In this document: one piece after another, positions 3,340-57,750 of the stretch
Position numbering within the stretch: position 1 is the stretch's first letter
Layout: each line of letters opens with the position of its first letter
IMG/VR virus record: IMGVR_UViG_3300017991_000003
Coordinates: 129,019-193,018 of that record
DNA from: a virus
Length of the DNA: 64,000 nucleotides
Direction: 5' to 3' (one strand)
Notes under the pieces: generated by a model
Seen by the model: only the letters and a program-made list of their open reading frames with translations
Told to the model about the DNA's origin: nothing
Database searches by the model: none
Translations under genes and position numbers: made by a program

Positions 3340-3985
3340 GGGTAGGTGGTGGGGTAGAGGTGATCGACATGAGACTTATGCCACAGTCCCTGGTCTAAAA
3401 AGAGAGCCCAACCCGAGGGGGTTGAGCTCTCTGGAAGTGCCCGGGCCCGCCCCTTTCATCGCAGTCCAACGAGTGGGACAAGGGGGATGCCGTAAGGGCC
3501 CGGGCTTGTAGGTGCGGAGCCGTGCCAGGATCACGGCCCCGCGGTGCTGTGGAAGTAGCTTGGCCCCCCAAGGAGGTGGGATGAGCCGCCGTAGCTACGA
3601 TGAGGCTCGCAGTCGGGCATGGTGCTACCCGGCCAACAGCGTGGCGATACGCCGAGACCCGGATCGCCGCCGGATAAGGTGGCCCCCGTCGTGACGTGCT
3701 CAGCTCACGCTCGAGGGGTTGGAAGACCTGCCATCTAGGATCAGTGGGATCCCCATCCCTTTGCACTCCTCGGAGAGTGTGCCGCTCCTGCGGCTGATGT
3801 GATGGCAGGTGGAAGACACCCACAGGTAGCAAGAACCGGCCTGGATGACCTCTTCGTTGCCCTAGGACCGGGGTCAGAGCCTTCCGGGCGCGCCTGTGGG
3901 TGATTGGGAAAGCCGAGCACGTCATCAACGCCGCTTGTGCGTCTGCTTGGTTGGTGGAGACGTGTGACGCTGCTCGGCTTTTGTA

Positions 3986-4072
3986 TGGTGCAGGAAGGGG
4001 GACTCGAACCCCCACGCCCGGGTGGGCACGTGGACCTAAACCACGGGCGTCTACCGATTCCGCCACTCCTGC
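3986..4072 (-). tRNA. tRNA-Leu (anticodon TAG), CCA encoded
   Basis: Reverse complement reads GCAGGAGTGGCGGAATCGGTAGACGCCCGTGGTTTAGGTCCACGTGCCCACCCGGGCGTGGGGGTTCGAGTCCCCCTTCCTGCACCA. 7-bp acceptor stem with one G-U pair, anticodon loop TTTAGGT, long variable arm, T-loop GGGGGTTCGAGTCCCCC. Confidence 0.85.
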
Positions 4073-4146
4073 ATGTAAAGGCATCGATGACCCGTGGGAG
4101 AGTTTCCCCACTCTGTGTTGAGCCCACAGATCATCGATGTGATTGA

Positions 4147-4232
4147 TGGTGCGGGAGGAGGGACTCGAACCCTCACGCCCGAAGGCAGTGGATTTTGAAT
4201 CCACCGTGTCTACCGATTCCAACCACCCCCGC
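4147..4232 (-). tRNA. tRNA-Leu (anticodon CAA), CCA encoded
   Basis: Reverse complement reads GCGGGGGTGGTTGGAATCGGTAGACACGGTGGATTCAAAATCCACTGCCTTCGGGCGTGAGGGTTCGAGTCCCTCCTCCCGCACCA. Anticodon loop TTCAAAA, long variable arm, canonical T-loop. Confidence 0.85.
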
Positions 4233-4446
4233 AGAGGGAGTGCCCCGCCGGCCGGAGCCGACGGGGCGAGTGCCTGTCTTTCCAGACTGTCCGCCCCGTT
4301 CGTATCATGCGCTAGGGGCTCTCGACAGTTCACTACGCCGCCATGCGGACGTCGGTGTTGGCATTTGAAAGCCAGAAGGTACAGACGCCACCGGGCAACT
4401 ATTCTCTGCTCGTAACTATACCCGCGAGCACGTCGGGTTGAAAGGT

Positions 4447-6532: not shown

Positions 6533-6607
6533 TGGCTAGGAGTGTCAGGGTGGGAAAACTGTCTCCATATCTTGACAGAGGGGCGCCGGCTAGGCACGAT
6601 CCCTGGC
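6533..6607. promoter_or_regulatory. divergent intergenic region with inverted repeat CTGTC-N10-GACAG and TTGACA hexamer
   Basis: 75-bp gap between divergent gene starts 6532 (-) and 6608 (+); contains ctgtctccatatcttgacag. Promoter elements not confidently assignable. Confidence 0.3.
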
Positions 6608-7123
6608 ATGGAAACGACAACGACAGAGGCCCGCCCTGAGCTACAGCTTCGGCCGTTGGCCGGGCGGGTGATGATTCGAGTGGACGAGGCCCCCACGATG
6701 AGCGCAGGTACGCGAGGCCGTCAGGTCTATCTACCCGAGAGCGTCCAGAAGGAGGAGAAGGCGAACTACCGGTTCGGTACGGTCGTGGCCCTAGGGGACC
6801 CCGCGCTGCATCCGAAGACCGGCAGGCCGATCCCGTGGGCTGTGCATGTAGGCACCAAGGTCTGCTTCCAGTTCGGGGCTGACCTTACAGGTGAGCGAGA
6901 GCTCCAGTACACAGGAGGCGTGGCCCATGCGGTGTGCTTTGCTGAGGATCTGATTTACGCCATCGAGGATGATTATGAGATTCAGCCGACTCCCGTATGC
7001 CCCAACAGCGTAGGGGTTGCGCTACGCCGCGCTCTGATGAACGACGACTGGCTGACCGAGGAGCAGGTTGACACCCTGAGCCGGCGGCTCGCGTGCACGA
7101 TTGCCGGGGTTGTGCCCGCGTGA
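6608..7123 (+). CDS. GroES-like co-chaperonin (Cpn10 family) with C-terminal extension
   Basis: ATG at 6608; LRPLAGRVMIRVDEAPTMSAG...FGTVVALGDPA...PWAVHVGTKVCF...AEDLIYAIED aligns by eye with GroES (IRPLHDRVIVKR..TKSAGGIVL..GEVLAVGNG..VKVGDIVIF..ESDILAIVE). Confidence 0.6.
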   Translation: METTTTEARPELQLRPLAGRVMIRVDEAPTMSAGTRGRQVYLPESVQKEEKANYRFGTVVALGDPALHPKTGRPIPWAVHVGTKVCFQFGADLTGERELQYTGGVAHAVCFAEDLIYAIEDDYEIQPTPVCPNSVGVALRRALMNDDWLTEEQVDTLSRRLACTIAGVVPA

Positions 7124-7758
7124 GAATCGGCCGCACTTCCGATCTAGCGCCCTGGCCGCTCTTCATCGGCTTCTACACCCCGGAGTACGAGGAAGAGGCC
7201 GGGGAGCTTCGTAAGACCCTGGACGCGTTCGGGCTGCCACACGAGATCGAACCCGTCGAGTCCACGGGTAGCTGGTGGCTCAACACGCAGATCAAGGCTC
7301 AGATCATTTTGCTCAAGCTACGGGATCACCTGGGTCGACCGCTGGTCTACCTGGACTGCGATGCCCGAGTCAGGCAGGCTCCTACCTTGTTCCGCTCCCT
7401 GCATCACCAGTGCGACTTCGCGGCTCACTTCCGACCGGATCGACGATTCGAATGCGGTCGAGAGCTTTTGAGCGGGACGCTGTACTTCAGCGGCTCGCCG
7501 GCTTGCCAGGGCCTGGTACAGGCTTGGATCGATGAGAATGAGCGCCAGGCTGCGATCAAGAGTAGCAACAAGCTCCGCCTCATGGATCAGAGAACCTTGC
7601 AGACGGTCCTGGCTAAGGAGATCGAGGAGTACGGTCTTATGTTCACCGAGCTCCCTGCTACCTACGTTCAGATCTTCGACATCATGCGCGACGCCGGCGA
7701 CCCGGTGATCGAGCATCTCCAGGCCAGCCGCCGATTGAGGAACAAGGTTGGTCACTAG
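7120..7758 (+). CDS. putative glycosyltransferase (nucleotide-diphospho-sugar transferase-like, GT-A fold)
   Basis: GTG at 7120 overlaps the upstream TGA (alternative GTG at 7093). LVYLDCDARV and overall pattern resemble DxD-type sugar transferases; weak. Confidence 0.4.
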   Translation: MRIGRTSDLAPWPLFIGFYTPEYEEEAGELRKTLDAFGLPHEIEPVESTGSWWLNTQIKAQIILLKLRDHLGRPLVYLDCDARVRQAPTLFRSLHHQCDFAAHFRPDRRFECGRELLSGTLYFSGSPACQGLVQAWIDENERQAAIKSSNKLRLMDQRTLQTVLAKEIEEYGLMFTELPATYVQIFDIMRDAGDPVIEHLQASRRLRNKVGH

Positions 7759-7770
7759 ACTCATGACTCA

Positions 7771-8529
7771 ATGAAGCGACTGATCTACCAGGTCTGCGTT
7801 GGCCCGCCTGACCCGCTCTACGACAAGTGCACGCGCACTGTTGCGGCCTACTGCAAGCGCCTCGGCATCGCGTACATCAAGCAGACCGAGCCGGTCCTGA
7901 AGATCCGCCCGAACCCCGCTACGAGCGGGAGAAGCCAGAACGCTGTTGAACGACTAGGGTACCTGCCGATCTTCGAGAAGGAGAACGCACTCGCCCACCT
8001 TGGTGAGTTCGATCAGGTGGCCATTATCGACTCCGATATCTGGATCAGGGAGGAGGCACCCAACATCTTCGAGGAGCTCGAGGAGGGTGTTGACTTCATG
8101 GGGGTGGTCGAGCGAACCGCACCCATCACGCCGCAGTATGATCGGAAGCTCAAGAGCTACGCGCGCGGCCAGTACGGTCGTCCGGACTTCCCCTTCATGA
8201 ACATGGGGCTCATGCTCATGAACAAGAGCCTGCGCCGCTTCTGCCCCGAGCCTCCTCGGGAGTTTCTGGCGCGTCCGGAGTTCCAGGCCTTCGTGGATGG
8301 GCGGGGGGCCTACAAGTGGAGCACGGACCAGACCCTGCTCAACACCTGGTTGACCAGCGATCCCGACATGGTCGTGAAGCCTCTCGACTGGCGGTGGAAC
8401 GCCCTGTACGGGGCGCTGGTGCCCGGGTCGATAGAACAGGCCCACTTCGTTCACTTCTTCCTCAAGAACCACCTGGATAGCCAGGATCCCGACAAGCTCC
8501 TTCAGACACAAGGCCGCAAACGCGTTTAG
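7771..8529 (+). CDS. glycosyltransferase family 8-like protein
   Basis: AIIDSDIWI (DxD), FMNMGLMLMN, STDQTLLNTWL and HFVHFFLK match the order of conserved GT8 motifs. Confidence 0.55.
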   Translation: MKRLIYQVCVGPPDPLYDKCTRTVAAYCKRLGIAYIKQTEPVLKIRPNPATSGRSQNAVERLGYLPIFEKENALAHLGEFDQVAIIDSDIWIREEAPNIFEELEEGVDFMGVVERTAPITPQYDRKLKSYARGQYGRPDFPFMNMGLMLMNKSLRRFCPEPPREFLARPEFQAFVDGRGAYKWSTDQTLLNTWLTSDPDMVVKPLDWRWNALYGALVPGSIEQAHFVHFFLKNHLDSQDPDKLLQTQGRKRV

Positions 8530-8533
8530 CCCC

Positions 8534-9211
8534 ATGAGCAAAGTACCACCCCTATTCATTCACGTACCGAAGACCGGTGGCATGTCCGTGCACCATGGAC
8601 TAGGCCGCCTGATCCGAGAGACGCTGTCTCGAGACAAGCTGAAGTCTCTGGACTACGCGGCGACGATCGAGCAGCACATGCGCTCCAAGGGTGAGCCTAC
8701 TCCGGGGTACCGTCATGCCCGGTGGCGTGACGTCAAGCCGGGGTGGCGGGATAAGGGCCGCTGTTTCACGGTGCTGCGCAATCCGTGGTCCCGTGTGGTC
8801 AGTCGCTACCGGTTCGGACTCAATACCTGGGCGACGCGTCCCTACAACTACACGAACTTCGAGGAGTTTCTTGCGGAGCATGAGGAGTGGGGCCAAGAGC
8901 CGTACTACTGGCACCGCGCCGTGCGGGGCTGGTACCCTGCGGTGGATCACGTGACGGACGGCCAGGGCAACCTCAAGTGCGATGTTCTGCGTACGGAGCA
9001 CCTGGACGATGACATCTGGGCCTACTTCGGGAAGCGGCTACCTCCGCGCCGACGCAACGTCACGCGCGGCGATGCCGTGGACTACAAGACCTTCTACGAC
9101 GATCGAACCATCCAGCTGGTGGCAGACTGGTATGCCGAGGACATTGAGATGTTCGGCTTTGACTTCGACACGCCGGCGACGAAGAACCTGTGGGAGGGCC
9201 TAGGAGCATGA
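8534..9211 (+). CDS. sulfotransferase (PAPS-dependent, carbohydrate sulfotransferase-like)
   Basis: N-terminal LFIHVPKTGGMSV matches the 5'-phosphosulfate-binding motif (PKTGTT-like); TVLRNPWSRVVSRY matches the 3'-phosphate-binding motif (RDPxxRxxS). Confidence 0.65.
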   Translation: MSKVPPLFIHVPKTGGMSVHHGLGRLIRETLSRDKLKSLDYAATIEQHMRSKGEPTPGYRHARWRDVKPGWRDKGRCFTVLRNPWSRVVSRYRFGLNTWATRPYNYTNFEEFLAEHEEWGQEPYYWHRAVRGWYPAVDHVTDGQGNLKCDVLRTEHLDDDIWAYFGKRLPPRRRNVTRGDAVDYKTFYDDRTIQLVADWYAEDIEMFGFDFDTPATKNLWEGLGA

Positions 9212-9765
9212 TGGTTGGCAAGAACCAGGGCAGTCTCCTGGTTGTGCAGCAGATCCCAGAGAACAGCGTGGGTGCCGAGCTCGGCGTCTGGCGCGGGGAC
9301 ACATCAGCCCGCTTCCTAGCTAGCGGTAAGATCAAGCACTTGCACCTGGTGGATGCTTGGAGTCCCGACCCTTACTACGGCATCGAAGGCTACCGAGAGA
9401 AGTACGCCAAGCTGGTCGGATCGGGTGATCTCGACGCCTTTCGCGCCTACTACGACGCGGTCCTAGCCGGTGTCCGCAGGCGGTTTCAAGGCCAGCCCGT
9501 TACGATCCACCAAACCACTGTGCACGAGTTTCTGACTGAGCCCCCGGAGGATCTCGACTGGGTCTACGTGGACGCGAGTCACGAGTACCTCGACGTCCTT
9601 GATGATCTCGAGCGCTGTGCCCGTCACGTGGATCTGATCTTTGGGGATGACTACGGCAACAAGCCAGGGGTGGTTCGCGCTGTCGACGAGTTTGATCGGA
9701 CGCACCCCGAGTGGCACCTCCAGGTCCTGGGCAAGAACCAGTACCGCCTCGATAGGAAGGTCTGA
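9208..9765 (+). CDS. class I SAM-dependent methyltransferase (O-methyltransferase, Methyltransf_24-like)
   Basis: ATG at 9208 overlaps upstream TGA (ATGA). GAELGVWRGDTS glycine-rich motif, VDAW, DLDWVYVDASHEY and GDDY resemble the TylF/MycF-type fold. Confidence 0.55.
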   Translation: MMVGKNQGSLLVVQQIPENSVGAELGVWRGDTSARFLASGKIKHLHLVDAWSPDPYYGIEGYREKYAKLVGSGDLDAFRAYYDAVLAGVRRRFQGQPVTIHQTTVHEFLTEPPEDLDWVYVDASHEYLDVLDDLERCARHVDLIFGDDYGNKPGVVRAVDEFDRTHPEWHLQVLGKNQYRLDRKV

Positions 9766-10271
9766 TGCACCCATCAAGCAAGGCCAATATGAGGGAGGCC
9801 TGGGCACTCGTTCCCGACCCCCACCGCGTCGGGGACGTCCTTGATGTAGGCGGCGGTCGTGGCGGGGAATACCAGGAAATCTGGAAAGGGTGTGCTAGCT
9901 ACCGAACGGCTGACATTGCAGGTGACTGCGACCTCTTGATGCCTGGTGAGTACGAGATTCCACTTCCGGATGATTCGATCGATGTGGTGATTAGCGGCCA
10001 GACACTGGAGCATGTCCGCAACCCTTTCCGCCTCGTCACCGAGATGCGCCGGGTACTGAAGCCCGGTGGCTACGTGGTGATCATCGCCCCGTCCGCGGGC
10101 CCGGCCCATTTCAAGATCGACTGCTGGCGCTTCGTCCGGGATGCGTTCCGGGCCATCGCCCACGAGTGCGATCTAGAGGTTGTTGCCGATTGGATCTATA
10201 CCGGGGACTCTGGCCGAGGTCCTAACAAGCAGTGGAACGATCACACCTTCGTGGGGAGGAAGCCCGAGTGA
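9765..10271 (+). CDS. class I SAM-dependent methyltransferase (Methyltransf_11-like)
   Basis: VLDVGGGRG (motif I), DVVISGQTLEHV and LKPGGYVVI (motif III-like); 1-nt overlap with upstream stop. Confidence 0.6.
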   Translation: MHPSSKANMREAWALVPDPHRVGDVLDVGGGRGGEYQEIWKGCASYRTADIAGDCDLLMPGEYEIPLPDDSIDVVISGQTLEHVRNPFRLVTEMRRVLKPGGYVVIIAPSAGPAHFKIDCWRFVRDAFRAIAHECDLEVVADWIYTGDSGRGPNKQWNDHTFVGRKPE

Positions 10272-10969
10272 ATGCGTATGCCATCACGCTCTTCGGTAAC
10301 GAGACCAGCACCCAGAGCGTTGACAAGCTCTTTGAGTCCCATGTGGCGCTTGAGCAGCATTTCGATCTGATCCGCTTCCCGGCCATCACTCCTGACCAGA
10401 ACCAGGAGATCATGGCGGAGGAGCGCCTGGTGTGGACCTATCCCTGGGAAAACAACCGGCTGGATGGGATCACTGGCTTGAAGCTGCATCCCTACGCCAC
10501 ACGTGATCGGGGTGCGCGGATCGCCTGCTTCCTATCGCACTACCACCTCTGGAAGCTGGCCTGCGAGACTGGGGAGTGGGTGATGATCCTGGAGGACGAC
10601 ACGGTATTCACCAAGCACCTAGACCTAGACAGCCTGCCTTACCGTGAGTGGAGCGCCGTCGGCATCAACAACCCACTAGGGGCGACGCGTCGAGCGCCTG
10701 TGTTCCACGACAAGGTCGTGGCGCAGCGTCCGACTCCGATCATCGAGACCCCGTGGGTTGATGATGAAGTCAGGACCCCGCAGGGGCTGGCCGGCCACAG
10801 TGCCTACATGATCAGCCCTGAGCTGGCTAAGGACCTGATCCATCGAGCCCGTCATGCGGGTTGCTGGCCTAACGACGCATTGATGTGCAAGCAGCTGTAC
10901 CCTGGGAAGCTCGGGGTCACAACCGAGTTCTACACCCGAGTCCAGCAGACCCCGAGTACTCTGGCATGA
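10268..10969 (+). CDS. glycosyltransferase family 25-like protein
   Basis: GTG at 10268 (GTGA overlap). AYAITLFGNETS, IACFLSHYHLWKLA and VMILEDDTVF match GT25 (LPS/LOS glycosyltransferase) signature order. Confidence 0.55.
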   Translation: MNAYAITLFGNETSTQSVDKLFESHVALEQHFDLIRFPAITPDQNQEIMAEERLVWTYPWENNRLDGITGLKLHPYATRDRGARIACFLSHYHLWKLACETGEWVMILEDDTVFTKHLDLDSLPYREWSAVGINNPLGATRRAPVFHDKVVAQRPTPIIETPWVDDEVRTPQGLAGHSAYMISPELAKDLIHRARHAGCWPNDALMCKQLYPGKLGVTTEFYTRVQQTPSTLA

Positions 10970-11628
10970 AGGCGCGCGTCATCACCCTGATCCACAACAA
11001 GCGATCTGTTCAGGTAGCGAATCGGTGCATTGAGAGCGCTGCAAGGTTCGGCGTTGAGGTTGATATCTTCCCGGCCATCAGGGCGGCGGATAACCCCAAG
11101 GCCCTGATGTTCGAGCGGAAGTTCTCGATGAAGGGGTTTGAGGACAATGAGTACTCGCGTCTTGAGCCGTGCCTGGCTACGTTCCTCTCCCACTCTCGCC
11201 TATGGGAGCTTGCGGTGCTGCTAAAGGAGGCAGTCCTGATCCTCGAGCACGACGCTGTGTTCCAGGCTCCGCTCCCGGAGATGATCGAGGAGCGGGTGAA
11301 GATGCTCTGCAATCTGGGCAAACCGAGCTTCGGCTCCTTCAAGACCCCGAAAGAGGGGCTAGGCCCGTTCGTGTCCAAGCCCGGCGGCTATCTAGGCGGC
11401 GCCCACGCGTACCTGGTCCAGCCTGAGGCCGCTGAGGTGATGTTGGAGAAGGCCAAGACAGAGGCGGAGCCGGCCGATGTGTTCATCCAGAAGAAGCGCT
11501 TCCCCTGGATGACTGAGTACTACCCGTGGCCGGTGATCTGCGATGACTCCTTCTCCACCATCCAGAAGCCCGCAGGTTGCACGGCCAAGCACAACAAGGT
11601 CGAGATCATCGATCAGGATGAATCGTGA
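10966..11628 (+). CDS. glycosyltransferase family 25-like protein (second copy, divergent)
   Basis: ATG at 10966 (ATGA overlap). MKARVITLIHNKRS, ATFLSHSRLWELA and VLILEHDAVF mirror the GT25 pattern of the adjacent gene. Confidence 0.55.
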   Translation: MKARVITLIHNKRSVQVANRCIESAARFGVEVDIFPAIRAADNPKALMFERKFSMKGFEDNEYSRLEPCLATFLSHSRLWELAVLLKEAVLILEHDAVFQAPLPEMIEERVKMLCNLGKPSFGSFKTPKEGLGPFVSKPGGYLGGAHAYLVQPEAAEVMLEKAKTEAEPADVFIQKKRFPWMTEYYPWPVICDDSFSTIQKPAGCTAKHNKVEIIDQDES

Positions 11629-11861
11629 GGCTGCTAAGTCGCGCCTACTGGGCGGAGGTCGTCGAGTGCGACTACTGCCCTAATCCTGAAGAACCGCCCG
11701 CGCTTGTTTGTGGTGTCTGCGGCGATACGGGGAAAGCCCCGCGATGGCGTCGGGCTTGGCGCGATGTCTTCCGGTGTAGTGCTCTGGTGGGCCATCCTGA
11801 TAGGAGCCCTGCTTGTGGGGGCGTTGGCTCAGTAAAAACAACGCGTTGTTTTGTCGGGTAG
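11625..11861 (+). CDS. small Cys-rich protein, possible zinc ribbon
   Basis: GTG start overlapping upstream stop; CDYC...CGVC pair of CxxC motifs; last gene of the rightward operon. Confidence 0.35.
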   Translation: MRLLSRAYWAEVVECDYCPNPEEPPALVCGVCGDTGKAPRWRRAWRDVFRCSALVGHPDRSPACGGVGSVKTTRCFVG

Positions 11862-11884
11862 GTAGCTAAAACAACGTGTTGTTA
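11835..11884. terminator. pair of AT-rich palindromes between convergent operons (candidate bidirectional terminator or operator)
   Basis: Perfect palindrome AAAACAACGCGTTGTTTT (11835-11852) and near-copy AAAACAACGTGTTGTT (11868-11883), conspicuously AT-rich in a GC-rich genome; sit between the 3' ends of the plus operon and the minus gene 11922..12179. Confidence 0.4.
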
Positions 11885-11921
11885 GGCACCCCAGCGCCCG
11901 AGGGCGCCGGGGGCCTGGTTC

Positions 11922-12179
11922 TCAGGGGCGGAGCCGCAGCCCCCGAGAGGTGACCAGCACCTTACGGTGCGGGACCTTGGGGAGCTTCGGCAGGGGCGGG
12001 AGGTCGACGTCGGTGTCGACGACCGCCTCCACCAGGGACTCGCCGTCCGCCCCGCTGATGTGGAGGCGGCGGTGCTCGCTGTTCTCGGTCACGTGGACCG
12101 AGCCCAGCGGGGTTTTGACCTTGGCGATGGTTCGCTCGGGGGCGATCCACGCCAAGATCTCGTCGAAGAACCCCATCAC
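11922..12179 (-). CDS. hypothetical protein (85 aa)
   Basis: Complete ORF, last gene of the leftward operon, coupled to the upstream gene by a 4-nt overlap. Confidence 0.45.
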   Translation of the reverse strand: MMGFFDEILAWIAPERTIAKVKTPLGSVHVTENSEHRRLHISGADGESLVEAVVDTDVDLPPLPKLPKVPHRKVLVTSRGLRLRP

Positions 12180-12358
12180 TTGCAGAGCAGCGGGTTCTTC
12201 CCCCGCTGCTTGATGCGGCGCACCCTCGCGCGGAGGGTGTGCTCGATGGAGAGGGGCTGCCCGCGGAGGCGGGAGGTGACGGCGATGTCTAGGCCGCGCA
12301 TGGGGGAGATCTTCCCCCGGCGGACCTTGAGCATCACCTGGCGACTGAGATTGCTCAT
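12176..12358 (-). CDS. small basic hypothetical protein (60 aa)
   Basis: Complete ORF; Arg/Lys-rich; 4-nt overlaps on both sides. Confidence 0.4.
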   Translation of the reverse strand: MSNLSRQVMLKVRRGKISPMRGLDIAVTSRLRGQPLSIEHTLRARVRRIKQRGKNPLLCK

Positions 12359-12555
12359 GTGGTCAGGTGGTCGGCGAAGGCCCAGGTGACGGCCTCCGCG
12401 AAGTTGGGGGTGAGGGTGGCGTAGCCCGTCTCTACGTGGGAGACGTGGGACTGACTGAACCCGATACGCGCAGCGAACTGCGCTTGGGACAGGCCCAGCC
12501 CCTTCCTGATCCAGCGGACCAGGCGGGGGCTGAGCTCGACGGTGGTGGCGATCAC
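12355..12555 (-). CDS. helix-turn-helix transcriptional regulator (XRE/Cro-CI family)
   Basis: LGLSQAQFAARIGFSQSHVSHVETG is a classic HTH_3 motif; 66 aa. Confidence 0.6.
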   Translation of the reverse strand: MIATTVELSPRLVRWIRKGLGLSQAQFAARIGFSQSHVSHVETGYATLTPNFAEAVTWAFADHLTT

Positions 12556-12839
12556 GACGCCTCCTCCGCGTCCGCCCAGGCTCGGGCGATCTGACGCATG
12601 GGAGCCCTCTGGGAGAGGGGCCGGACGGTCACGAGAGTGATGAGACGCTTGTGGCCGATCGTGATGAGCGGCTGCTCGTAGCCGCCCCGCGAGGCGGCCT
12701 CACGCACCTTCTTTTTGAAGGTGGTGAGCTGCGGGCTGTGAGCAGGCAGGCCGATCAGGGATTGACCTACTTCCTCGAACACCTCGCAGATGACCTCGGG
12801 CATGAGGGGCCGCAGCGGTTCTCGCATGGGGTTCTTCAT
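12552..12839 (-). CDS. hypothetical protein (95 aa)
   Basis: Internal ATG (MKNPMREPLRPLMPEVICEVFEE...) of track ORF 12552..13226; ATGA overlap with the stop of the upstream gene. The upstream 129 aa of the track ORF are Arg/His/Pro-rich read-through. Confidence 0.45.
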   Translation of the reverse strand: MKNPMREPLRPLMPEVICEVFEEVGQSLIGLPAHSPQLTTFKKKVREAASRGGYEQPLITIGHKRLITLVTVRPLSQRAPMRQIARAWADAEEAS

Positions 12840-13180
12840 CGGATCTCGAACCCCAGCTTTTCGGCGAGTTCGACCGTGGCGGTGCGGCTCGTGTGGTGGC
12901 GGGAGAACGCCACCTCGCCGGTGGCGAGGTCCACGTACCAGCGGTTGCCGCCGCCAATGCCGTAGATCGTCACGTGACCGGACTGGCCACGCATACGCAG
13001 GGCGTGGCCCCACGTGTATTGAGAGGACTCGGGGTCCTCGATGGAGTCCATCTGGCTCAGGAGCCAGGCGACCCCGTTTGCGTCGCGGCGCTCCTCGTCG
13101 TAGGTCGACGAGAAGCCCTCGACTTCTGCCATGTCGATGAGCGTCTCGGCGCTCATGATACGACCGGTCAGGGTGGTCAT
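12836..13180 (-). CDS. hypothetical protein (114 aa)
   Basis: Complete ORF, non-repetitive composition; first gene of the leftward operon, directly preceded by the 42-bp repeat. Confidence 0.5.
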   Translation of the reverse strand: MTTLTGRIMSAETLIDMAEVEGFSSTYDEERRDANGVAWLLSQMDSIEDPESSQYTWGHALRMRGQSGHVTIYGIGGGNRWYVDLATGEVAFSRHHTSRTATVELAEKLGFEIR

Positions 13181-13183
13181 GGT

Positions 13184-13225
13184 GTTGGGTGGTGAGGGTG
13201 TCTCCGGGTAGACATCCCCGGATCA
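13184..13225 (-). promoter_or_regulatory. 42-bp conserved upstream element, copy 1 (identical to 14851-14892)
   Basis: GTTGGGTGGTGAGGGTGTCTCCGGGTAGACATCCCCGGATCA, 3 nt upstream of the start codon at 13180. In gene sense it contains hairpin TCCGGG-gatgtcta-CCCGGA and a C-rich tract CACCCTCACCACCCAAC before ATG. Confidence 0.6.
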
Positions 13226-13339
13226 TTAGACTTATGCCCTAACCTCTCCCCCTCCTGGCGCTTTTGGTCCATACTGGGGGCACAACTTGACGCCCTTCGG
13301 GGCCGTCTCCCACGGATAACACAACTCCAGGAGAAGAGC

Positions 13340-15306: not shown

Positions 15307-15711
15307 GTGGATCTGGGGGTCGTTCAGGTCTCTGATCAAGTCCTGACCCCGGGCCTGGGGGACGCTCCGGTCCGGGTGTCAGGTCTTCGTGCCCTCGTAC
15401 AGCAGGCGGTCATCGAGCTCATCTCGAACCCCCTGCCGGAGCGAGGGCGCGGGGCTGGGCTAGCTCAGCTCGTTGCAGCCCTGCCTCCCCAGAACCAGGC
15501 ACAAGCTCGTGGCACCTTTGCGCAGGCCGTGAGCTCCGCCAAGACGCACATCTTGGCCAACCAGCGCTACGCTTCCAACCTCACCGCGAACGAGCGGCTG
15601 CAAGACATGACCCTGCTTCGGGCCGAGCTCAATGGGCTCGTCTGGGAGATCGACATCAGGATCACCAACGTAGCCGGCGAGTCCGCCACCTTTGCCCTGC
15701 CGGTCAGCTGA
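15307..15711 (+). CDS. hypothetical protein (134 aa)
   Basis: GTG start 4 nt after upstream stop; 1-nt overlap with the next gene. Confidence 0.45.
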   Translation: MDLGVVQVSDQVLTPGLGDAPVRVSGLRALVQQAVIELISNPLPERGRGAGLAQLVAALPPQNQAQARGTFAQAVSSAKTHILANQRYASNLTANERLQDMTLLRAELNGLVWEIDIRITNVAGESATFALPVS

Positions 15712-16778
15712 TGACGTCCCACAAGAGTACCCACAAGGACAAACTACCCGGCGGACTTGCGGACAAGATGCGAGATGCCGTCTTCGCGGCCTCCGCCCTC
15801 AAGGCGGGAACCAAGGTGGAGATGGAGCATACTGATGATCCGCAGCTAGCCAAGGAGGTAGCTAAGGACCATCTCGCCGAGGATCCGCAGTACTACAAGA
15901 AGCTGCGGAAGATGGAGAAGAAGGCCGGTGGCTACGCCACCGGCTCGGTTGAGGTCGCCTCGCAGGTAGGTCGTAGGGTCTTGCCCGCCTGGAGCCGGTC
16001 GAAGAAGATTCCCGCGGGAGCGAAGCGTGCCGCAGGTATGGTTAGGCAGCAGCCGTTCGCCCCTGGTGGGAAAAACAGCCTGATCCCCGCTTCGTCGACG
16101 ACTCGCAAGCCGCTCCCGACCTTCACCTCGACATCCAAGCCGATGAGCATGGCCAAGGCCGCGATGCTGCAAGGCATGGTGAACACGCTGGCTAAAGAGG
16201 CGGGGTGGGTGGATAAGCTCAAAGGCGGAGCCAAGAAGGCTCCCGGTGTGATCGCCCGAGAGGGCGCAGGCATCGCAACGTGGGGAGTCGGGGAAGGGGT
16301 GGCCAACAAGCTCATTCCCCGGTGGAAGCCCCCGACCCCGCGCGTGAAAGTGGCTGGGGTTGATAAGGAGGCCATCCTTCAGGCCTTGCTATGGGCGCCG
16401 GCCCTGTATGAAGGGGCCAAGGCCGCCGGCCGCGTAGCGGCTAAACCGTTCAAATCCCTCAAGCGTGGGCTAGCCCCGAAGAGCCCCAAGATCCAAGGAC
16501 CGCACCCTGAAGTGCGCGCTGCGAACACCCCTGAGGTGGCTAAGGTCGCGGTATGGGGGACGCTCGCCCGTGTGGCTACTAAGCTGGCCCCTCGATTGGC
16601 TAAGGTGGCTCCGAAGACGAGTGCCCGTCTAGCGACGGCTACGCCGCAATCTACCAAGGCGCTCGCAGGACGCGCCGGTAAGGCGGCTGCTAGGGATGCG
16701 GCGCTGGGAGCCGGTACGATGGGCGCAGCTAACGCGGCAAGCCACGTGGCCCGACCGAAACGCCCTAACCCTCTGTAG
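15711..16778 (+). CDS. Lys/Ala-rich basic protein (355 aa), possible internal virion or DNA-associated protein
   Basis: Complete ORF; repeated AKxxxK segments; conserved-looking N-terminal block KVEMEHTDDPQLAKEVAKDHLAEDPQYYKKL. Confidence 0.5.
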   Translation: MTSHKSTHKDKLPGGLADKMRDAVFAASALKAGTKVEMEHTDDPQLAKEVAKDHLAEDPQYYKKLRKMEKKAGGYATGSVEVASQVGRRVLPAWSRSKKIPAGAKRAAGMVRQQPFAPGGKNSLIPASSTTRKPLPTFTSTSKPMSMAKAAMLQGMVNTLAKEAGWVDKLKGGAKKAPGVIAREGAGIATWGVGEGVANKLIPRWKPPTPRVKVAGVDKEAILQALLWAPALYEGAKAAGRVAAKPFKSLKRGLAPKSPKIQGPHPEVRAANTPEVAKVAVWGTLARVATKLAPRLAKVAPKTSARLATATPQSTKALAGRAGKAAARDAALGAGTMGAANAASHVARPKRPNPL

Positions 16779-16787
16779 GGATTAGAG

Positions 16788-19700
16788 ATGGCTGAGTTCA
16801 AGGACTGCCAGAGCCCGAGCCCCCTGACCGGGCGGATCGGCCCCGATCTGATCGAAGAGGTTGGCGGGGTCTCTCTGGCAGGTGTGTTGGCAGGCACGGA
16901 GACGCTGCCGGTTGGTGCAATCCCTGTCACAGCCCCGCTTTATGACAGTCCGAGCCCTACAGGTACGGCTATTGGACTGCGGTTGGATTCGAGCCTGACG
17001 GTTGATGCCCAGGGCCGGCTCAGTATTGCTGGAGCCCCATCGCCCGCGGCCCACGCCTCGAGCCACGAGCCTGGCGGGTCTGATCCGATCACCCCTGCTG
17101 CCTTTGACGGGCTTATCACCCCGCCGGTCGCCACGACGGTTGTCCTTGGCGGTGTCAAGGACGGTGACGGCGTCTCGATCGCCGGTGACGGCACCCTGAC
17201 CCTCGATCTGGCCGCCGCCAGTGGCCTCGAGATCAGCGGCGGGACCCTGAGACTGGCACTGGGTACCGGTGTCAGCTTCAGCGGCAACGATCTGGTCCTG
17301 GACGAGGCCACGGACTCCACGCTGGGCGGCATCATCGCCGGCACGGGTCTATCAGTCAGCTCGGGTACGGCGAGCCTCAACGCCCCCCAAGTCACGGGAG
17401 CCTCCCTAGCGGGCAGCACTCTGGTCTGGGATACCAGCCCGAGTGCCCAGAGTCCCAGCCCTGCTCTGAGGCTTCCGGCGAGCTTCACGTACACCAAGGC
17501 GATCCCGCAGTCGCAGCTGCCGACCGCGGCCTACGGCAGCCCGGGCAGCTCGAGCCCCAGCCCGCAGCTCGGCCTTGTCCGCATCTATGGCCCGAGCGAG
17601 GGCCTGACGCTTAGCGATGGGCTCCTGTCGCTGGCGACTCCGATCAGCACGGATCACCTACCCACCGCTACTGGTCTAGGTGGGCGAGGCATCGTCCGCG
17701 CGGGCCTACTTGACGGTACGGGCGTCTACGTCTCCAACAGTACGACCGGCCAGCTGGCGATCCTGATTGACGCCACGTCGGACACGTTGGCGTTGTCGTC
17801 GAGCGGGATCAAGGTCAAGTCCAATCGCTTCCTGGCGCTGACTGGCACCGGTAACCTCCCCAGCCCCGCGGCGAGCCCGAGCCCGGGGACTGACGGCTGG
17901 ATGACCGGGTCGGTTCGATTCACCAACGACCTGGGTGAGCCTGCGATCCGCACCGGTAACCAGCGGATCCGCTACGAGTTCGGGGCCAGCCCGTCTCCCG
18001 GGGCGATCCTGGCATCGGCTGATCTAAGCGATCTACTAACGTACCAGGAGATCAGCACACTCATCTCCCAGGCTGAGCTTGGTGTCGAGGTTTGGACTCC
18101 TGGGCGACCTGTGCAGGCAGAGCCGGGTACGAGCCTAGGTGCGTTGGCGGAGCTCTCGGCCGGGGATCGGTTCCTTACGAGCACGTCGTCCAACACCAAC
18201 CCCGGCGGTGACTGGAATGCGCACAACTGCGTGTTCGCGGTCTGGACGGAAACGGCTCCCGATACCTTTACCTGGGTCTATGAGACCCCCACGGTCAACA
18301 CCTGGTTCACAGACGACGTAACTGGGGACACGTGGGCTGTTGTTGTCGGCTCCCCCTCCCCGAAGTCGCCCTCACCGAACCCGTCGCGAGAGGCTTTCCG
18401 GTATCGCGCTCGTCAAGATGACACAGCATCGACGGCCCGAGCTGGTCGCGTGCGTGTCCCGACGACCAGTGGCCTCGTCATGGACGGCGAGGATATTCGG
18501 CTATCCCTCGCCTCGGACATCGGGGTCAGTACGGGCCTGCGTCTGATCACCCGAGCTCGCAACAACGCGCTAGCTCTCGATCTCAGCCGGTCCCAAGGGA
18601 TCTTGGAGCTCAACTCCGACGGGCGCCTTCAGGTTGCCGCGTCCTCGATCCAGGCCACGGAGATCGCGGACAACACCATCGTCCTCGACAACCTGGCCGC
18701 GGATCAGGTGACAGGCGGTACCAAAGACTTCATCGCCACGCAGTACGACGGGCTATCCGTCCGGCTGGTGGGGGACTCGGAAGACTTCCGCGTCACTGGG
18801 GCGCCTGTCAGCACGGCTACGACCATTCTGATCCACACCGAGGACGGTATCGGTGTGGCGGAGGAGTCGATCAACACTGACGCTCTCTCGGACGAGGCGG
18901 TTAGCTACAGCAAACTCCTGATGCCCACGGCCTCCGGTCTGGAGGACAACGGGCAGGACAAGGTCCGGGTCAAGCTCCAGACCCGCAGCGGCCTCGAGCG
19001 AACGGTGGATGGCCTGGCGGTCAACATCCATGACGTGGTGGACGATGCCACGATTGAGCTCGACACATCCACGGGCGGCTTGCGCGTCAAGACAGGTAGC
19101 CTGACGTCGTCGTACTTCGCGTCGGGCCTGGCGATCTCGGCCTCGGTCCTCACGCTGGGAGCCCCTATGCTCTCGTCGAGCGGGCTCCTGACCTTCTGCT
19201 ACCAGAGCCCTCTGGTCCTGACCGGCAGCCCCGGCTGCTTGACGATCGGCGAAGGCTTGATCAGCTCGCCGTATCTCGGCACCGGGTCGGTCAGCTACGC
19301 CAAGCTCAAGCTGGCGAGCCCCTCCGGCATCACGCAGACGGCCGGCGGTATCAAGGTCGACATCTCGACGGGTCTCGCCTTCAGCGGCAACCAGATCGTG
19401 GTCGACCAGGTGCCGGCAGACGCGATGGCACTGGATGCGGATTCGGCGTTGTACGCCGCTAGCCCGACCAGTCCGCTGACGCAGCTGGAGCTGAGCATCC
19501 GGGTCAGCAGCCCGTTCACGCAGACGGGTGGTACGCTGGATCTAGCGGACGAGGGTGTTCAGGTGAGTCACCTGGATCGCTCCAAGCTGCGCGGTAGCTT
19601 CCTGGCCAGCGGCCTCGAGGCCGGCCTAGGTACCCAGACCAGTCCCTTCGACTCTTGGGTCACGAGCCCGGCGTTCTACACCGGCTCGGACGCCCCGGGT

Positions 19701-57481: not shown

Positions 57482-57750
57482 TGGCCCGTCCTGCTGTAAC
57501 CCTCTACTACCAGAGCAACTGCGGTTTCTGCCCAGATGCGATTGAGGGGTGTGCGGGCCTCGTAGAAGCCCTGGGTGCTCCTATCCTTATTCGTAAGCCG
57601 ACTTTGCAGGAAATGAAGTCCGGGCAGATCCCTGGCTATCCCGCCCTGTTCGTGCCGGCTGGGGTCCGAGGCCTCACCCGCCCCTATCTCCTGGTAGGTG
57701 CGGCCCTCCCCGACCTCCTTGACCAGTTGCTGAGCTCCACGGATGGCTGA
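57481..57750 (+). CDS. glutaredoxin/thioredoxin-fold protein (89 aa)
   Basis: VTLYYQSNCGFCPDAIEG has a CxxC active-site motif at the position expected after beta-strand 1; 1-nt overlap upstream and 8-nt overlap downstream. Confidence 0.5.
   Translation: MARPAVTLYYQSNCGFCPDAIEGCAGLVEALGAPILIRKPTLQEMKSGQIPGYPALFVPAGVRGLTRPYLLVGAALPDLLDQLLSSTDG

Follow-up and report, generated by a model that had tools for sequence, protein, structure and literature searches.

A modular phage cassette that packs four glycosyltransferases, a sulfotransferase and two methyltransferases into one operon

What does a phage build with four glycosyltransferases, two methyltransferases and a sulfotransferase, and on which acceptor? 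The question is raised by a large uncultured phage (IMG/VR record IMGVR_UViG_3300017991_000003) that carries these genes as one tightly packed operon (Table 1). Is the product destined for the virion, or for the envelope of the host? Here we investigate the operon within a 64,000-nucleotide stretch of the phage sequence, called the window below, and compare it with related loci (numbered L) from other phages.

Table 1. Features of the operon and its borders, in window coordinates
Feature	Position	Strand	Length (aa)	Description
Promoter-like element CATATCTTGACA	6566-6600	+		-35 TTGACA 6572-6577, 17-nt spacer, CACGAT 6595-6600
GroES-like (Cpn10) leader	6608-7123	+	171	C-terminal extension of ~80 aa
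g1 (NT1)	7120-7758	+	212	Nucleotid_trans-like GT-A glycosyltransferase, DxD motif LDCDARV
g2 (GT8c)	7771-8529	+	252	GT8-like retaining GT-A glycosyltransferase, DxD motif IIDSDIW
g3	8534-9211	+	225	PAPS-type sulfotransferase, family 2
g4	9208-9765	+	185	Methyltransf_24 class I SAM methyltransferase
g5	9765-10271	+	168	Methyltransf_11 class I SAM methyltransferase, SAM motif VLDVGGGRG
g6 (GT25a)	10268-10969	+	233	GT25 glycosyltransferase, motif LEDD
g7 (GT25b)	10966-11628	+	220	GT25 glycosyltransferase, motif LEHD
'Zinc-ribbon' ORF	11625-11861	+	78	CxxC...CxxC; doubtful gene
Palindrome AACAACGYGTTGTT	11837-11883	+		Two copies pairing as a 17-bp hairpin

The seven genes run rightward directly after a GroES-like gene. 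The initial annotation had them joined by overlaps and translationally coupled, which stands for most junctions but not for all. Overlaps are present at 7120 (GTGA, the g1 start with the stop codon of the GroES-like gene), 9208 (ATGA), 9765 (TGATG), 10268 (GTGA) and 10966 (ATGA), but g1 and g2 are separated by 12 nt and g2 and g3 by 4 nt. The GroES-like gene was correctly placed at the head of the operon. Its product matches Pfam Cpn10 (6.6e-6, 26.5 bits against a cut-off of 21.1) and, weakly and below their cut-offs, the NCBIfam GroES models. It leads the operon in all four high-GC relatives, and heads the cassette in L004 (53% identity), L008 (63%) and L006/L026. The element upstream of it resembles a sigma-70 promoter with a perfect TTGACA -35 box, and would function as one. 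CTTGACA-N15-19-ACGAT has a single occurrence in the window, where 0.01 would be expected by chance, and the element is kept in the window, L004 and L008 despite diverged flanking DNA. Only 7 nt lie between its CACGAT and the ATG of the GroES-like gene, which implies a near-leaderless transcript.

A zinc-ribbon protein had been proposed to end the operon, and this we could not support. The ORF overlaps g7 (GTGA at 11625), has a GC3 of 0.57 against 0.72-0.83 in the neighbouring genes, was left uncalled by the JGI and ENA gene callers (L001, L002), and has no syntenic homologue in the relatives and no family match in Pfam, PHROG or NCBIfam. The terminator-like palindrome makes up the 3' end of the ORF. 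As the ORF is probably not a gene, the functional unit would consist of the genes up to 11628 and the hairpin beyond. The hairpin itself is likely to be an operon terminator or an operator. The AACAACGYGTTGTT motif is found at this site alone (0.19 matches expected by chance), and the RNA folds at -24.6 kcal/mol (z = -1.96), with no T-run after the hairpin.

Profile searches confirmed the enzyme families named in the initial annotation; neither a lack of matches nor matches to unrelated folds was the outcome. Two of the four glycosyltransferases, g6 and g7, match GT25 (PF01755) directly, with 49.1 bits (8.2e-13) and 38.4 bits (1.6e-9) against a cut-off of 24. They are 47% and 42% identical to their respective counterparts in L012, and the motif is kept as E[HD]D in 113 GT25a homologues and as EHD in 96 GT25b homologues. 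The other two, g1 and g2, have no direct Pfam match and were placed through their homologues and by fold search. For g1, 185 homologues were found and Nucleotid_trans (PF03407) was matched by 28 of the 38 tested; for g2, with 2012 homologue clusters, GT8 (PF01501) was matched by 17 of the 40 tested. Residues D79 and D81 of g1 and D87 and D89 of g2 are invariant across the homologues. The AF2 models (pLDDT 93.9 for g1, 92.2 for g2) both match retaining GT-A enzymes. The top PDB match of g1 is A64R (2p6w), a capsid-glycan glycosyltransferase of the virus PBCV-1 (E 1.6e-8, TM 0.65), followed by XXT1, GlyE, glycogenin, alpha-1,3-galactosyltransferase and LH3. Those of g2 include XXYLT1, the UGGT catalytic domain, A64R, WbbM and LgtC.

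Both methyltransferases exceed the Pfam cut-offs for class I SAM families: g4 matches Methyltransf_24 (PF13578; 2.4e-8, 35.2 bits against 26.3) and g5 Methyltransf_11 (PF08241; 7.4e-14, 52.6 bits against 21.2). The positional counterpart of g4 in L006 also matches RMNT_CmcI, a rhamnosyl O-methyltransferase family, and g4 is predicted to be of the sugar or small-molecule O-methyltransferase type. In NCBIfam, g5 has sub-threshold matches only, to small-molecule methyltransferases. Neither protein matches a DNA-methyltransferase Pfam family or contains a DPPY-type motif; the sole label of that kind comes from phrog_2675, a 'DNA methyltransferase' by name, which matches the Methyltransf_24 core of g4.

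The remaining enzyme, g3, is a PAPS-type sulfotransferase as first annotated. It matches Sulfotransfer_2 (5.9e-6, 27.0 bits against 22) and phrog_3347 (4e-9), and its family profile matches human SULT1C2 (1.7e-5) over the region of the 3'-phosphate motif. FIHVPKTGGMS (the 5'-phosphosulfate loop), VLRNPWSRVVSRY (the 3'-phosphate motif) and H61 are invariant in 38 homologues, and the PAPS-binding motifs are intact. An APS-kinase signature was found neither in the window nor in 185 related loci.

Is a sulfotransferase in a phage glycan cassette unusual, as had been suggested? Among deposited genomes it is, with 2 weak matches in 50,697 GenBank records, but not in IMG/VR: there the family was found in 310 or more viral contigs, nearly always as part of the cassette. 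The sulfotransferase is therefore rare in GenBank phages and common in environmental ones. Among the best 79 sulfotransferase contigs, 76 also carry GT8c, 71 MT24 and 68 GT25a.

The operon represents a variant of a modular cassette that is essentially confined to phages and occurs in hundreds of their genomes from the environment. The core of the cassette consists of the GT8-like, GT25a, GT25b and Nucleotid_trans-like genes, and between these lie swappable tailoring genes for the sulfotransferase, methyltransferases and extra glycosyltransferases. The hallmark core gene is GT8c, present in at least 546 IMG/VR contigs. A scan of 185,579 species genomes found GT8c in 13 MAG contigs and in no isolate genome, using two peptide patterns only, which divergent bacterial homologues could escape. 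The carriers range from 32 to 65% GC. Among them are marine T4-like myophages that have nothing else in common with the present phage; their RNase H is 42-46% identical to that of Melnitz, HTVC008M and cyanomyophages. No close homologues of the cassette proteins were found in cultured phages, and the GT8-like, sulfotransferase and GT25 proteins had no or marginal matches in the 50,697 deposited phage genomes.

The enzyme families and their catalytic motifs, the layout of the operon and the distribution and modularity of the cassette are shown by these data, whereas the product, the order of steps and the acceptor are inferred. A sulfated, O-methylated oligosaccharide would be its natural product, and the most likely function is the cytoplasmic assembly of a short oligosaccharide capped with methyl and sulfate. 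Each of the four Leloir GT-A glycosyltransferases would draw on the nucleotide-sugar pools of the host to attach a single sugar; g1 and g2 have the retaining GT8/Nucleotid_trans-type fold, and g6 and g7 are GT25. The sugars would be O-methylated by g4 and g5 using SAM and sulfated by g3 with PAPS that probably comes from the host. The weakly conserved NT1/NT2 is the best candidate for a lineage-specific initiating step. With a conserved core of four glycosyltransferases and swappable methyl- and sulfotransferases, related phages would share a core oligosaccharide but differ in its caps.

As acceptor we tentatively favour a surface protein of the virion, either fibre or capsid, served by a phage-encoded line of soluble enzymes. 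The enzymes are soluble and self-contained, and the cassette is phage-specific, with a conserved core and a variable centre. Long hydrophobic runs are absent from all seven proteins. Pfam calls for five lineages show no flippase, polymerase, lipid-carrier glycosyltransferase or nucleotide-sugar synthase in the operon itself or up to ~10 kb away. The best structural match of g1 is itself a viral enzyme of capsid glycosylation, and XXYLT1, UGGT, GlyE, glycogenin and LH3 act on protein-linked glycans.

The genomic setting speaks on both sides. A conserved block comprising a 134-aa protein, DUF5661 and a protein of ~1250 aa is found 3-4 kb downstream of the operon in all four high-GC relatives. 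The large protein is enriched in [ST]P (z = 6.8) and contains 8 SPSP motifs, with six of the positions kept in L004. L006 has the core glycosyltransferases, but its homologue of the large protein is without the SPSP motif, which counts against a virion acceptor. The large downstream proteins are putative virion components, judged from size, composition and a single PHROG match, to a baseplate wedge protein (31942-34029). Of 158 loci of the T4-like lineage, 47 have the late-promoter core TATAAATA on the sense strand in the 1.5 kb preceding GT8c, and none has it on the antisense strand; the exact motif is absent from 70% of these loci. The neighbours of the cassette in that lineage are replication and auxiliary genes (RNase H, PhoH, lysozyme) rather than structural ones, again a point against the virion. 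In the window a leftward regulatory block separates the operon from the structural genes, and with this separation and its own sigma-70-like promoter, early or middle expression fits as well as late.

To our knowledge, virion glycosylation is the one role that experiments have demonstrated for a soluble set of several glycosyltransferases in tailed phages. Freeman et al. (Cell Host Microbe, 2023) are said to have shown that mycobacteriophage glycosyltransferases, in some phages with methyltransferases, modify virion proteins; we know of no sulfotransferase reported there. Those genes lie inside the structural operon of actinobacteriophages, unlike the present ones with their own promoter 3-4 kb from the putative structural block, and GenBank phage searches gave no sequence relationship to the cassette. 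The autonomous capsid glycosylation of PBCV-1, which also uses A111/114R and A075L, is similar in that soluble virus-encoded GT-A enzymes work with a sugar methyltransferase. A064R has two rhamnosyltransferase domains and a 2-O-methyltransferase domain, and across related chloroviruses, too, a conserved glycan core bears variable decorations (PMC7826918). Domain 1 of A64R is the best solved-structure match of g1 and the seventh of g2. However, PBCV-1 is a eukaryotic virus with multidomain enzymes, whereas those of the operon are separate and single-domain; sequence identity between the glycosyltransferases is only 11-13%, PBCV-1 has neither the GT25 pair nor a sulfotransferase, and its acceptor, Vp54, is proven.

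A serious rival, which we consider somewhat less likely, is the host LOS/LPS. Working on the cytoplasmic side of the inner membrane, the GT8-like and GT25 enzymes would extend lipid A-core or a different glycoconjugate of the envelope, methyl and sulfate would cap the new chain, and the altered surface would block superinfection by competing phages or the adsorption of progeny to infected cells and debris. GT8 and GT25 are classic LOS/LPS outer-core families, and PF01755 is named 'LPS biosynthesis protein'; this favours the envelope and weighs against the virion. LgtC and WbbM are among the fold matches of g2. The bacterial LOS enzymes (LgtC in GT8; LgtB, Lic2A and LpsA in GT25) share Pfam/CAZy families or clan, the GT-A fold and a DxD-type motif with those of the phage, and are likewise small, soluble or peripheral, with no need of their own flippase. 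The phage GT8-like protein, however, is itself below the Pfam GT8 threshold, and the phage GT25 motif is mostly EHD, not EDD. Further support comes from the consensus -35 box, as expected of early transcription by host RNA polymerase, from the auxiliary and replication neighbours in T4-like relatives, and from the resemblance of a conserved core with variable centre to O-antigen and capsule loci under diversifying selection. Several observations argue against the envelope. The GT8-like family is virtually absent from bacteria in the two-pattern scan, the core enzymes are 42-51% identical across phages of 32-65% GC, whose host envelopes must differ greatly, and the proteins are mostly acidic or neutral, without membrane-association features. 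Nor are we aware of experiments in which a lytic phage remodels LOS through a soluble cascade of several glycosyltransferases. Marine T4-like 'LPS-related' clusters with GT8, GT25 and other glycosyltransferases, of putative function and often in hypervariable regions of large phages, have been interpreted as modifying the host O-chain, both for the GT8-rich clusters of pelagimyophages (PMC7029224) and for those of cyanomyophages such as P-SSM2, S-SCSM1 and S-SCSM2R (PMC12801897). The present cassette is carried in its canonical form by uncultured T4-like myophages, and neither paper describes the fixed core GT8c-GT25a-GT25b-NT or a sulfotransferase.

Some other acceptor, such as a cytoplasmic protein of host or phage (toxin-like or regulatory), a self-glycosylating glycogenin-like primer, a small molecule or a glycolipid, seems improbable. 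Glycogenin, a GT8 enzyme, is among the fold matches of g1, and the sulfotransferase homologues of Stappia and Roseibium are orphan genes outside glycan clusters. However, a set of seven enzymes with a diversifying tailoring module is more suggestive of a glycan that is exposed and recognised than of a regulatory mark, and no positive evidence favours any specific alternative.

Very unlikely is a glycan on hydroxymethylated DNA bases, evading restriction or CRISPR and further decorated with methyl and sulfate. No base hydroxymethylase lies near the operon, and in the lineages with Pfam calls the ~10 kb around the cassette show no thymidylate-synthase-like hydroxymethylase, TET/JBP dioxygenase, DNA cytosine methyltransferase or base kinase. 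Both g4 and g5 fall into families of small-molecule or sugar O-methyltransferases. NT1/NT2, the candidate for the initiating step, shows the lowest conservation of all components, which would be unexpected for a universal acceptor. We also know of no precedent for four to six sugars and a sulfate on DNA. In its favour, such an acceptor is common to all phages and would suit the wide distribution of the cassette, and an NT5C deoxyribonucleotidase gene often precedes GT8c in the T4-like lineage. Sulfotransferase and glycosyltransferase genes co-occur with nucleotide-metabolism genes in viromes (PMC10829341), and phage glycosyltransferases put mono- to oligosaccharides on 5hmC in a study that mentions neither sulfotransferase nor GT25 (bioRxiv 10.1101/2023.12.21.572611).

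Sulfotransferases also occur in viral glycosylation clusters elsewhere. In Moumouvirus australiensis a predicted sulfotransferase lies within the fibril-glycosylation cluster ma457-ma468 and has been proposed to sulfate virion-fibril sugars (PMC10117803). The Megavirinae, however, are giant viruses of eukaryotes, and their clusters hold nucleotide-sugar synthesis and sulfate adenylyltransferase/APS kinase genes. The huge phage LR756500.1 (462 kb, an unannotated deposit) differs in its GC content of 22%, in being without GT8c or the GT25 core, and in its capsule-like KdsA, KdsB, KpsC/S-like Capsule_synth, pyruvyl transferase, GT2, GT1 and GT29 genes. Its Sulfotransfer_2 gene (23% identity) lies ~3 kb from a g1-like domain (34%), with glycosyltransferases and methyltransferases around them.

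Eight closely packed rightward genes make up the glycan operon of the window, a GroES-like leader followed by seven enzyme genes (g1 to g7). From the leader to g7 the junctions are, in order, GTGA, a 12-nt gap, a 4-nt gap, ATGA, TGATG, GTGA and ATGA. The GC3 of all eight genes is 0.70–0.83, the range typical of real genes, in a window of 63.5% GC, and the operon is predicted to be a single transcription unit. Directly 5' of the leader lies a sigma-70-like element, CATATCTTGACA-N17-CACGAT, followed after 7 nt by the ATG of the GroES-like gene. The element has a perfect TTGACA and a 17-nt spacer, occurs once in the window, and is kept in the window and in the high-GC relatives L004 and L008 despite diverged flanking DNA. 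This suggests that the operon may be expressed as a near-leaderless or leaderless transcript from a sigma-70-type polymerase. The weak -10 box hid it from the consensus promoter/terminator scan, which returned no sigma-70 site; the element is detectable only by comparing relatives. In L008 it places the true start of the GroES-like gene 57 nt upstream of the called start.

The initial annotation ended the operon with a zinc-ribbon gene, which has not survived. The ORF has a GC3 of only 0.57, is uncalled by two independent pipelines on identical contigs and has no counterpart among the relatives, and is therefore treated as non-coding. It runs into two copies of the palindrome AACAACGYGTTGTT, found nowhere else in the window. 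The pair folds as a 17-bp hairpin, which we treat as the end of the operon. Between the operon and the downstream rightward genes is a leftward block of small genes that includes an HTH_3/HTH_31 regulator, and the palindrome pair could be the operator of this regulator instead of a terminator.

Features of the window and of related loci, with their positions
Sequence	Feature	Position	Strand	Match or remark
Window	312-aa ORF	3395-4333		spurious, since it overlaps both tRNA-Leu genes
Window	two adjacent tRNA-Leu genes	3986-4072, 4147-4232	-	anticodons TAG, CAA
Window	promoter-like element	6566-6607		sigma-70-like
Window	operon, leader to g7	6608-11628	+	
Window	GroES-like gene	6608-7123	+	Pfam Cpn10
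Window	g1	7120-7758	+	Nucleotid_trans-like glycosyltransferase
Window	g2	7771-8529	+	GT8-like glycosyltransferase
Window	g3	8534-9211	+	Sulfotransfer_2
Window	g4	9208-9765	+	Methyltransf_24
Window	g5	9765-10271	+	Methyltransf_11
Window	g6	10268-10969	+	GT25
Window	g7	10966-11628	+	GT25
Window	zinc-ribbon ORF	11625-11861		treated as non-coding
Window	palindrome pair	11837-11883		17-bp hairpin
Window	leftward block of small genes	11922-13226	-	
Window	regulator within leftward block	12355-12555		HTH_3/HTH_31
Window	355-aa protein	15711-16778		DUF5661
Window	1262-aa giant ORF	16788-20576		eight SPSP motifs
Window	baseplate-like protein	31942-34029		PHROG baseplate wedge protein
Window	3406-aa giant ORF	34036-44256		no Pfam/PHROG match
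Window	1410-aa giant ORF	52127-56359		no Pfam/PHROG match
Window	1512-aa giant ORF	57743-62281		no Pfam/PHROG match
L004	counterpart of 1262-aa protein	17693-20642		
L008	counterpart of 1262-aa protein	16978-20633		
L006	counterpart of 1262-aa protein	16985-20587		
L012	u197	11726-12319		MptE-like/DUF115, marginal (E 0.055)
L012	DUF3920 gene	12355-12840		
LT629784.1 (L010)	Stappia sp. ES.058 sulfotransferase locus	1106985-1123728		
LR756500.1 (L106)	capsule-like cluster	126000-146000		

The families proposed for the seven enzymes in the initial annotation were all borne out, by Pfam for g3 to g7 and by the Pfam matches of homologues together with predicted folds for g1 and g2. Profile HMM searches placed five enzymes and the leader above the Pfam gathering thresholds, and structure prediction with fold searching matched g1 and g2 to retaining GT-A enzymes. 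Family matches were found for all seven proteins or their homologues and no unrelated fold, such as that of a DNA methyltransferase, emerged; no NCBIfam model exceeded its cut-off.

For g1 there was no Pfam match to the protein itself; 28 of 38 homologues match Nucleotid_trans (PF03407, GT77-like; best E 1.1e-7). Its AlphaFold model (pLDDT 93.9) has a GT-A fold, and the best solved-structure match is A064R, the capsid-glycan glycosyltransferase of the chlorovirus PBCV-1 (E 1.6e-8), followed by XXT1, GlyE, glycogenin and LH3. Because g2 itself has no Pfam match at E <= 0.1, it is filed as GT8-like and not as a member of the family, GT8 (PF01501) being matched by 17 of 40 homologues (best E 9e-7). 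The AF2 model of g2 (pLDDT 92.2) predicts a retaining GT-A fold with a DxD motif; the top fold matches (E 2.5e-9 to 1.7e-6, TM about 0.5–0.56) are XXYLT1 (GT8), UGGT (GT24), A064R and LgtC (GT8), and WbbM is also matched. The DxD motifs, D79-x-D81 in g1 and D87-x-D89 in g2, are invariant among the respective homologues. Sequence searches of solved structures with g1 and g2, by single sequence and by profile, gave nothing useful. The other two glycosyltransferases, g6 and g7, score 49.1 and 38.4 bits against a GT25 (PF01755) cut-off of 24, the g7 match being confined to positions 24–111 of the 199-position profile, its N-terminal half. Their acidic motif is LEDD in g6 and LEHD in g7, the canonical GT25 form being an EDD-type DxD. 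EHD variants are the commonest among homologues, with LEHD in 93 of 113 members of the g6 family (GT25a) and the EHD form in all 96 of the g7 family (GT25b). On the aligned sequences, then, the motif is conserved yet unlike the canonical form.

The sulfotransferase g3 scores 27.0 bits against Sulfotransfer_2 (PF03567; cut-off 22), with residues 7–210 aligned to profile positions 12–252 of 252. PF03567 is also present in most g3 homologues, and the PHROGs match is to a 'galactose-3-O-sulfotransferase' family. Carbohydrates are the typical acceptors of family-2 sulfotransferases. Both PAPS-binding motifs are present: HVPKTGGMS for the 5'-phosphosulfate loop (PKxGxT/S) and LRNPWSRVVSRY for the 3'-phosphate-binding motif (R-x-P-x-x-R-x-x-S). 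Residues P12, K13, G16, R82, N83, P84, W85, S90 and R91 are invariant in 38 sequences, and the family profile aligns to human SULT1C2 over the region of the 3'-phosphate motif (1.7e-5). The invariant H10, H61 and H127 are candidate catalytic residues. Matches to designed TIM barrels were compositional, with zero qualifying stretches, and were discarded. A regex motif scan of the window and 185 loci (2.46 Mb) found no credible APS-kinase or ATP-sulfurylase signature, so PAPS is presumed to be supplied by the host. Cellular homologues of 45–52% identity occur in Roseibium, Stappia, Breoghania and Rhodobacter. The closest, in Stappia sp. ES.058, is an orphan gene outside polysaccharide loci, with propionyl-CoA carboxylase genes on one side and an HTH/Peptidase_M78 (ImmA-like) gene on the other.

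Both methyltransferases exceed their cut-offs, g4 against Methyltransf_24 (35.2 bits, cut-off 26.3; SAM motif ELGVWRGDT) and g5 against Methyltransf_11 (52.6 bits, cut-off 21.2; SAM motif VLDVGGGRG). Neither matches a DNA-methyltransferase Pfam family or contains a (D/N/S)PP(Y/F/W) or PCQ motif. The sole 'DNA methyltransferase' label is the name of phrog_2675, aligned to the Methyltransf_24 core of g4 only; relatives in Methyltransf_24 include rhamnosyl O-methyltransferases. The leader protein matches Cpn10 at 26.5 bits (Pfam cut-off 21.1), scores only 17–21 bits on NCBIfam GroES models with cut-offs of 96–142, and has 171 aa, about 80 of them in a C-terminal extension. The protein resembles GroES but is not its orthologue.

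The cassette is widespread in environmental phages. At least 546 IMG/VR contigs carry the g2 family (GT8c) and at least 310 the g3 sulfotransferase family. A scan with two peptide patterns only, which divergent homologues could escape, covered 185,579 bacterial and archaeal species with one genome each. It found GT8c at 13 loci, every one of them on a MAG contig and with taxonomic labels that are scattered and implausible, and in no isolate genome. The cassette is essentially phage-only. The initial annotation regarded a phage sulfotransferase as unusual, and this holds for deposited phage genomes, in which there are two g3 matches of 23–24% identity, both in unannotated huge phages. It does not hold for environmental phages, in which the sulfotransferase is a standard option of the cassette.

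How is the cassette organized? Its components were mapped onto 172 loci, in which the canonical order is [NT5C] - GT8c - [tailoring genes] - GT25a - GT25b - NT2 - u197 - [DUF3920]. The genes that occupy the tailoring slot between GT8c and GT25a are the sulfotransferase, Methyltransf_24, Methyltransf_11 or 12, and extra GT8-like and GT25-like genes. Among the best 79 of the sulfotransferase loci, GT8c is present in 76, Methyltransf_24 in 71, GT25a in 68 and GT25b in 59, and the sulfotransferase lies immediately downstream of GT8c in 46; it is present in 16 of the best 80 GT8c loci. The GC content of cassette loci ranges from 0.32 to 0.65, and the cassette is therefore long resident and ameliorated within each lineage. 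NT2 has a weak Nucleotid_trans match and remote similarity to g1. In a contig of 65% GC (L108) the place of NT2 is taken by a g1-type gene; g1 is therefore the positional equivalent of NT2, and the window operon is a rearranged high-GC variant of the cassette with the NT gene shifted to the front and a GroES-like gene added. The two genes after NT2, u197 (197 aa) and DUF3920, belong to the conserved core in about 50 T4-like loci and are absent from the window lineage.

One such locus, the 150-kb marine contig L012, illustrates the spread. Its sulfotransferase, GT8c, GT25a and GT25b are 45%, 51%, 47% and 42% identical to those of the window, it also has a Methyltransf_24 gene, and the two phages have nothing outside the cassette in common. 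The RNase H of L012 is 43–46% identical to those of OM43 myophage Melnitz, cyanomyophages and pelagimyophage HTVC008M, which places it in an uncultured T4-like lineage. In low-GC loci the T4 late-promoter core TATAAATA occurs upstream of GT8c on the sense strand in 47 of 158 and on the antisense strand in none. Across these 158 loci (a subset of L011 to L185) it was counted 209 times in sense and 36 times in antisense orientation, with a peak 460–780 nt upstream of GT8c.

The window itself seems to come from a tailed phage that is large and highly divergent. Against 50,697 GenBank phage records, neither blastn of positions 7000–12000 nor tblastn of g2, of the 1262-aa protein or of the baseplate-like protein returned a match, and tblastn of g6 gave three marginal matches. 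The giant ORFs and ten genes neighbouring the operon yielded almost nothing in Pfam and PHROG searches, the baseplate wedge match being the only one of its kind in the presumed structural region, and PDB sequence searches of three neighbouring proteins were empty; a virion role for the downstream block is therefore weakly supported. Metagenomic contigs as long as 193 kb encode identical proteins. A haloarchaeal virus, considered for the high GC, was ruled out by proteins that are not acidic and by the GroES-like gene, and host assignment from MAG labels was unreliable, with scattered taxa and mismatched GC contents.

Three high-GC lineages (L004/L005, L008/L009 and L006/L007/L026; contigs of 119–183 kb) share the order GroES-like, g1, g2, variable middle, GT25a, GT25b. 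All seven enzymes are present in L004 at 53–75% identity to the window. L008 is without the sulfotransferase and the Methyltransf_11 gene, and in L006 these two are replaced by another methyltransferase and extra GT8-like and GT25-like genes. In each lineage a conserved block, comprising a 134-aa protein, DUF5661 and a protein of about 1250 aa, lies 3–4 kb downstream of the operon. In the window the last of these is the 1262-aa protein, encoded about 5 kb past the end of g7; it contains eight SPSP motifs in an otherwise non-repetitive sequence, with 71 [ST]P dipeptides against 37 expected (z = 6.8). The adjoining DUF5661 protein is Ala/Lys-rich (domain match 4.3e-12) and is conserved in L004, and L008 has a gene of equal size at that position.

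As read from sequence, the operon encodes seven soluble enzymes with intact donor-binding motifs, four conserved glycosyltransferases plus exchangeable tailoring enzymes, and very probably they act as a glycan-building and capping line. Each glycosyltransferase would add a single sugar, so that the core would have at most four residues, and the methyltransferases and sulfotransferase would then cap it. NT1 (the g1 type) or NT2 would be the best candidate for a lineage-specific initiating step because it is the least conserved core component, and the well conserved GT8c, GT25a and GT25b would act on sugar acceptors.

What is the glycan attached to? A virion or other phage protein is a plausible acceptor, which we hold at somewhat less than an even chance. 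It is favoured by the phage-only distribution, by a cassette that carries no lipid-carrier or export functions, by a nearest fold match to the viral capsid-glycan enzyme A064R with many other fold matches acting on protein-linked glycans, and by the sense-strand T4 late-promoter cores. The high-GC operon is also linked to a GroES-like gene and lies near large S/T/P-rich proteins, of which the 1262-aa protein is a candidate O-glycosylation acceptor: six of its SPSP positions are kept in L004, three in L008 and none in L006, a comparison of four sequences that is confounded by phylogeny. That L006 has the core glycosyltransferases yet no SPSP motifs points to the host envelope (LOS/LPS), an acceptor we regard as possible and rather unlikely. 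GT8 and GT25 are the textbook families of the LOS outer core, the operon has a promoter of its own with a consensus -35 box, T4-like phages carry the cassette among auxiliary and replication genes, and GT8 clusters of pelagimyophages have been read as modifying the host O-chain (PMC7029224). Some other acceptor seems improbable. DNA is a most unlikely one. The NT5C gene next to the cassette, and the fact that every phage offers DNA as an acceptor, are weak hints in its favour. Against it, no base kinase lies nearby, and neither a base hydroxymethylase nor a TET/JBP dioxygenase is encoded within about 10 kb of the cassette in the lineages covered (that of the window, L004, L006, L008 and L012).

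The operon is real and coherent and lends itself to experiment; what would make it remarkable is a putative function, the sulfation of virion glycans. Tentatively, and with considerable doubt, the cassette may give virions a coat of a short O-linked oligosaccharide with methyl and sulfate caps, its swappable module making it a 'glycan serotype' system that is common among aquatic phages. A phage-made sulfated glycan would then be the first of its kind, and such a system would adjust the charge of virions, how readily they stick to marine polysaccharide gels, or their escape from host defences that recognise glycans, in hundreds of uncultured T4-like myophages and the dark high-GC jumbo-phage lineage of the window. 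Phage virion glycosylation would then extend from actinobacteriophages to abundant aquatic phages, and sulfation would join phage biochemistry. A glycan on the host surface would instead be the product of the first defined LOS-editing system of a lytic phage. Few 'auxiliary' genes of large marine phages are as common as glycosyltransferase clusters, and the LPS annotation that these routinely receive is unsupported. Here one fixed phage-specific core is defined (a GT8-like, two GT25 and a Nucleotid_trans-like glycosyltransferase, plus exchangeable sulfo- and methyltransferases), present in at least 546 viral contigs of unrelated phage lineages over a two-fold GC range. The seven-gene cassette is a concrete, portable unit for experiments that would choose between virion protein, LOS/LPS and DNA.

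Phage glycosyltransferase clusters and virus-autonomous glycosylation are known kinds of system. As far as our literature searches reach, the combination of a fixed phage-specific core, an exchangeable sulfo/methyl module and breadth over unrelated lineages is undescribed. The Gtr systems of seroconverting phages consist of the membrane proteins GtrA (flippase), GtrB (bactoprenol glycosyltransferase) and GtrC, whereas in the window operon there are no such Pfam families and no long hydrophobic run in any of the eight proteins; the isoelectric points of the enzyme families, taken as a proxy for membrane association, gave no decisive signal. The eukaryotic virus Moumouvirus has a predicted sulfotransferase in a fibril-glycosylation cluster and its own PAPS synthase (PMC10117803), in contrast to the window and related loci with no APS-kinase signature. 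A different, capsule-like cluster with Sulfotransfer_2 is present in the published, unannotated huge phage LR756500.1 (462 kb, GC 22%), one of the two deposited phages with a g3 match. It encodes KdsA (Kdo-8-P synthase), KdsB (CMP-Kdo synthetase), a pyruvyl transferase, a GT2, two methyltransferases, a KpsC/S-like protein, an 836-aa multidomain glycosyltransferase and a GT29-like protein.
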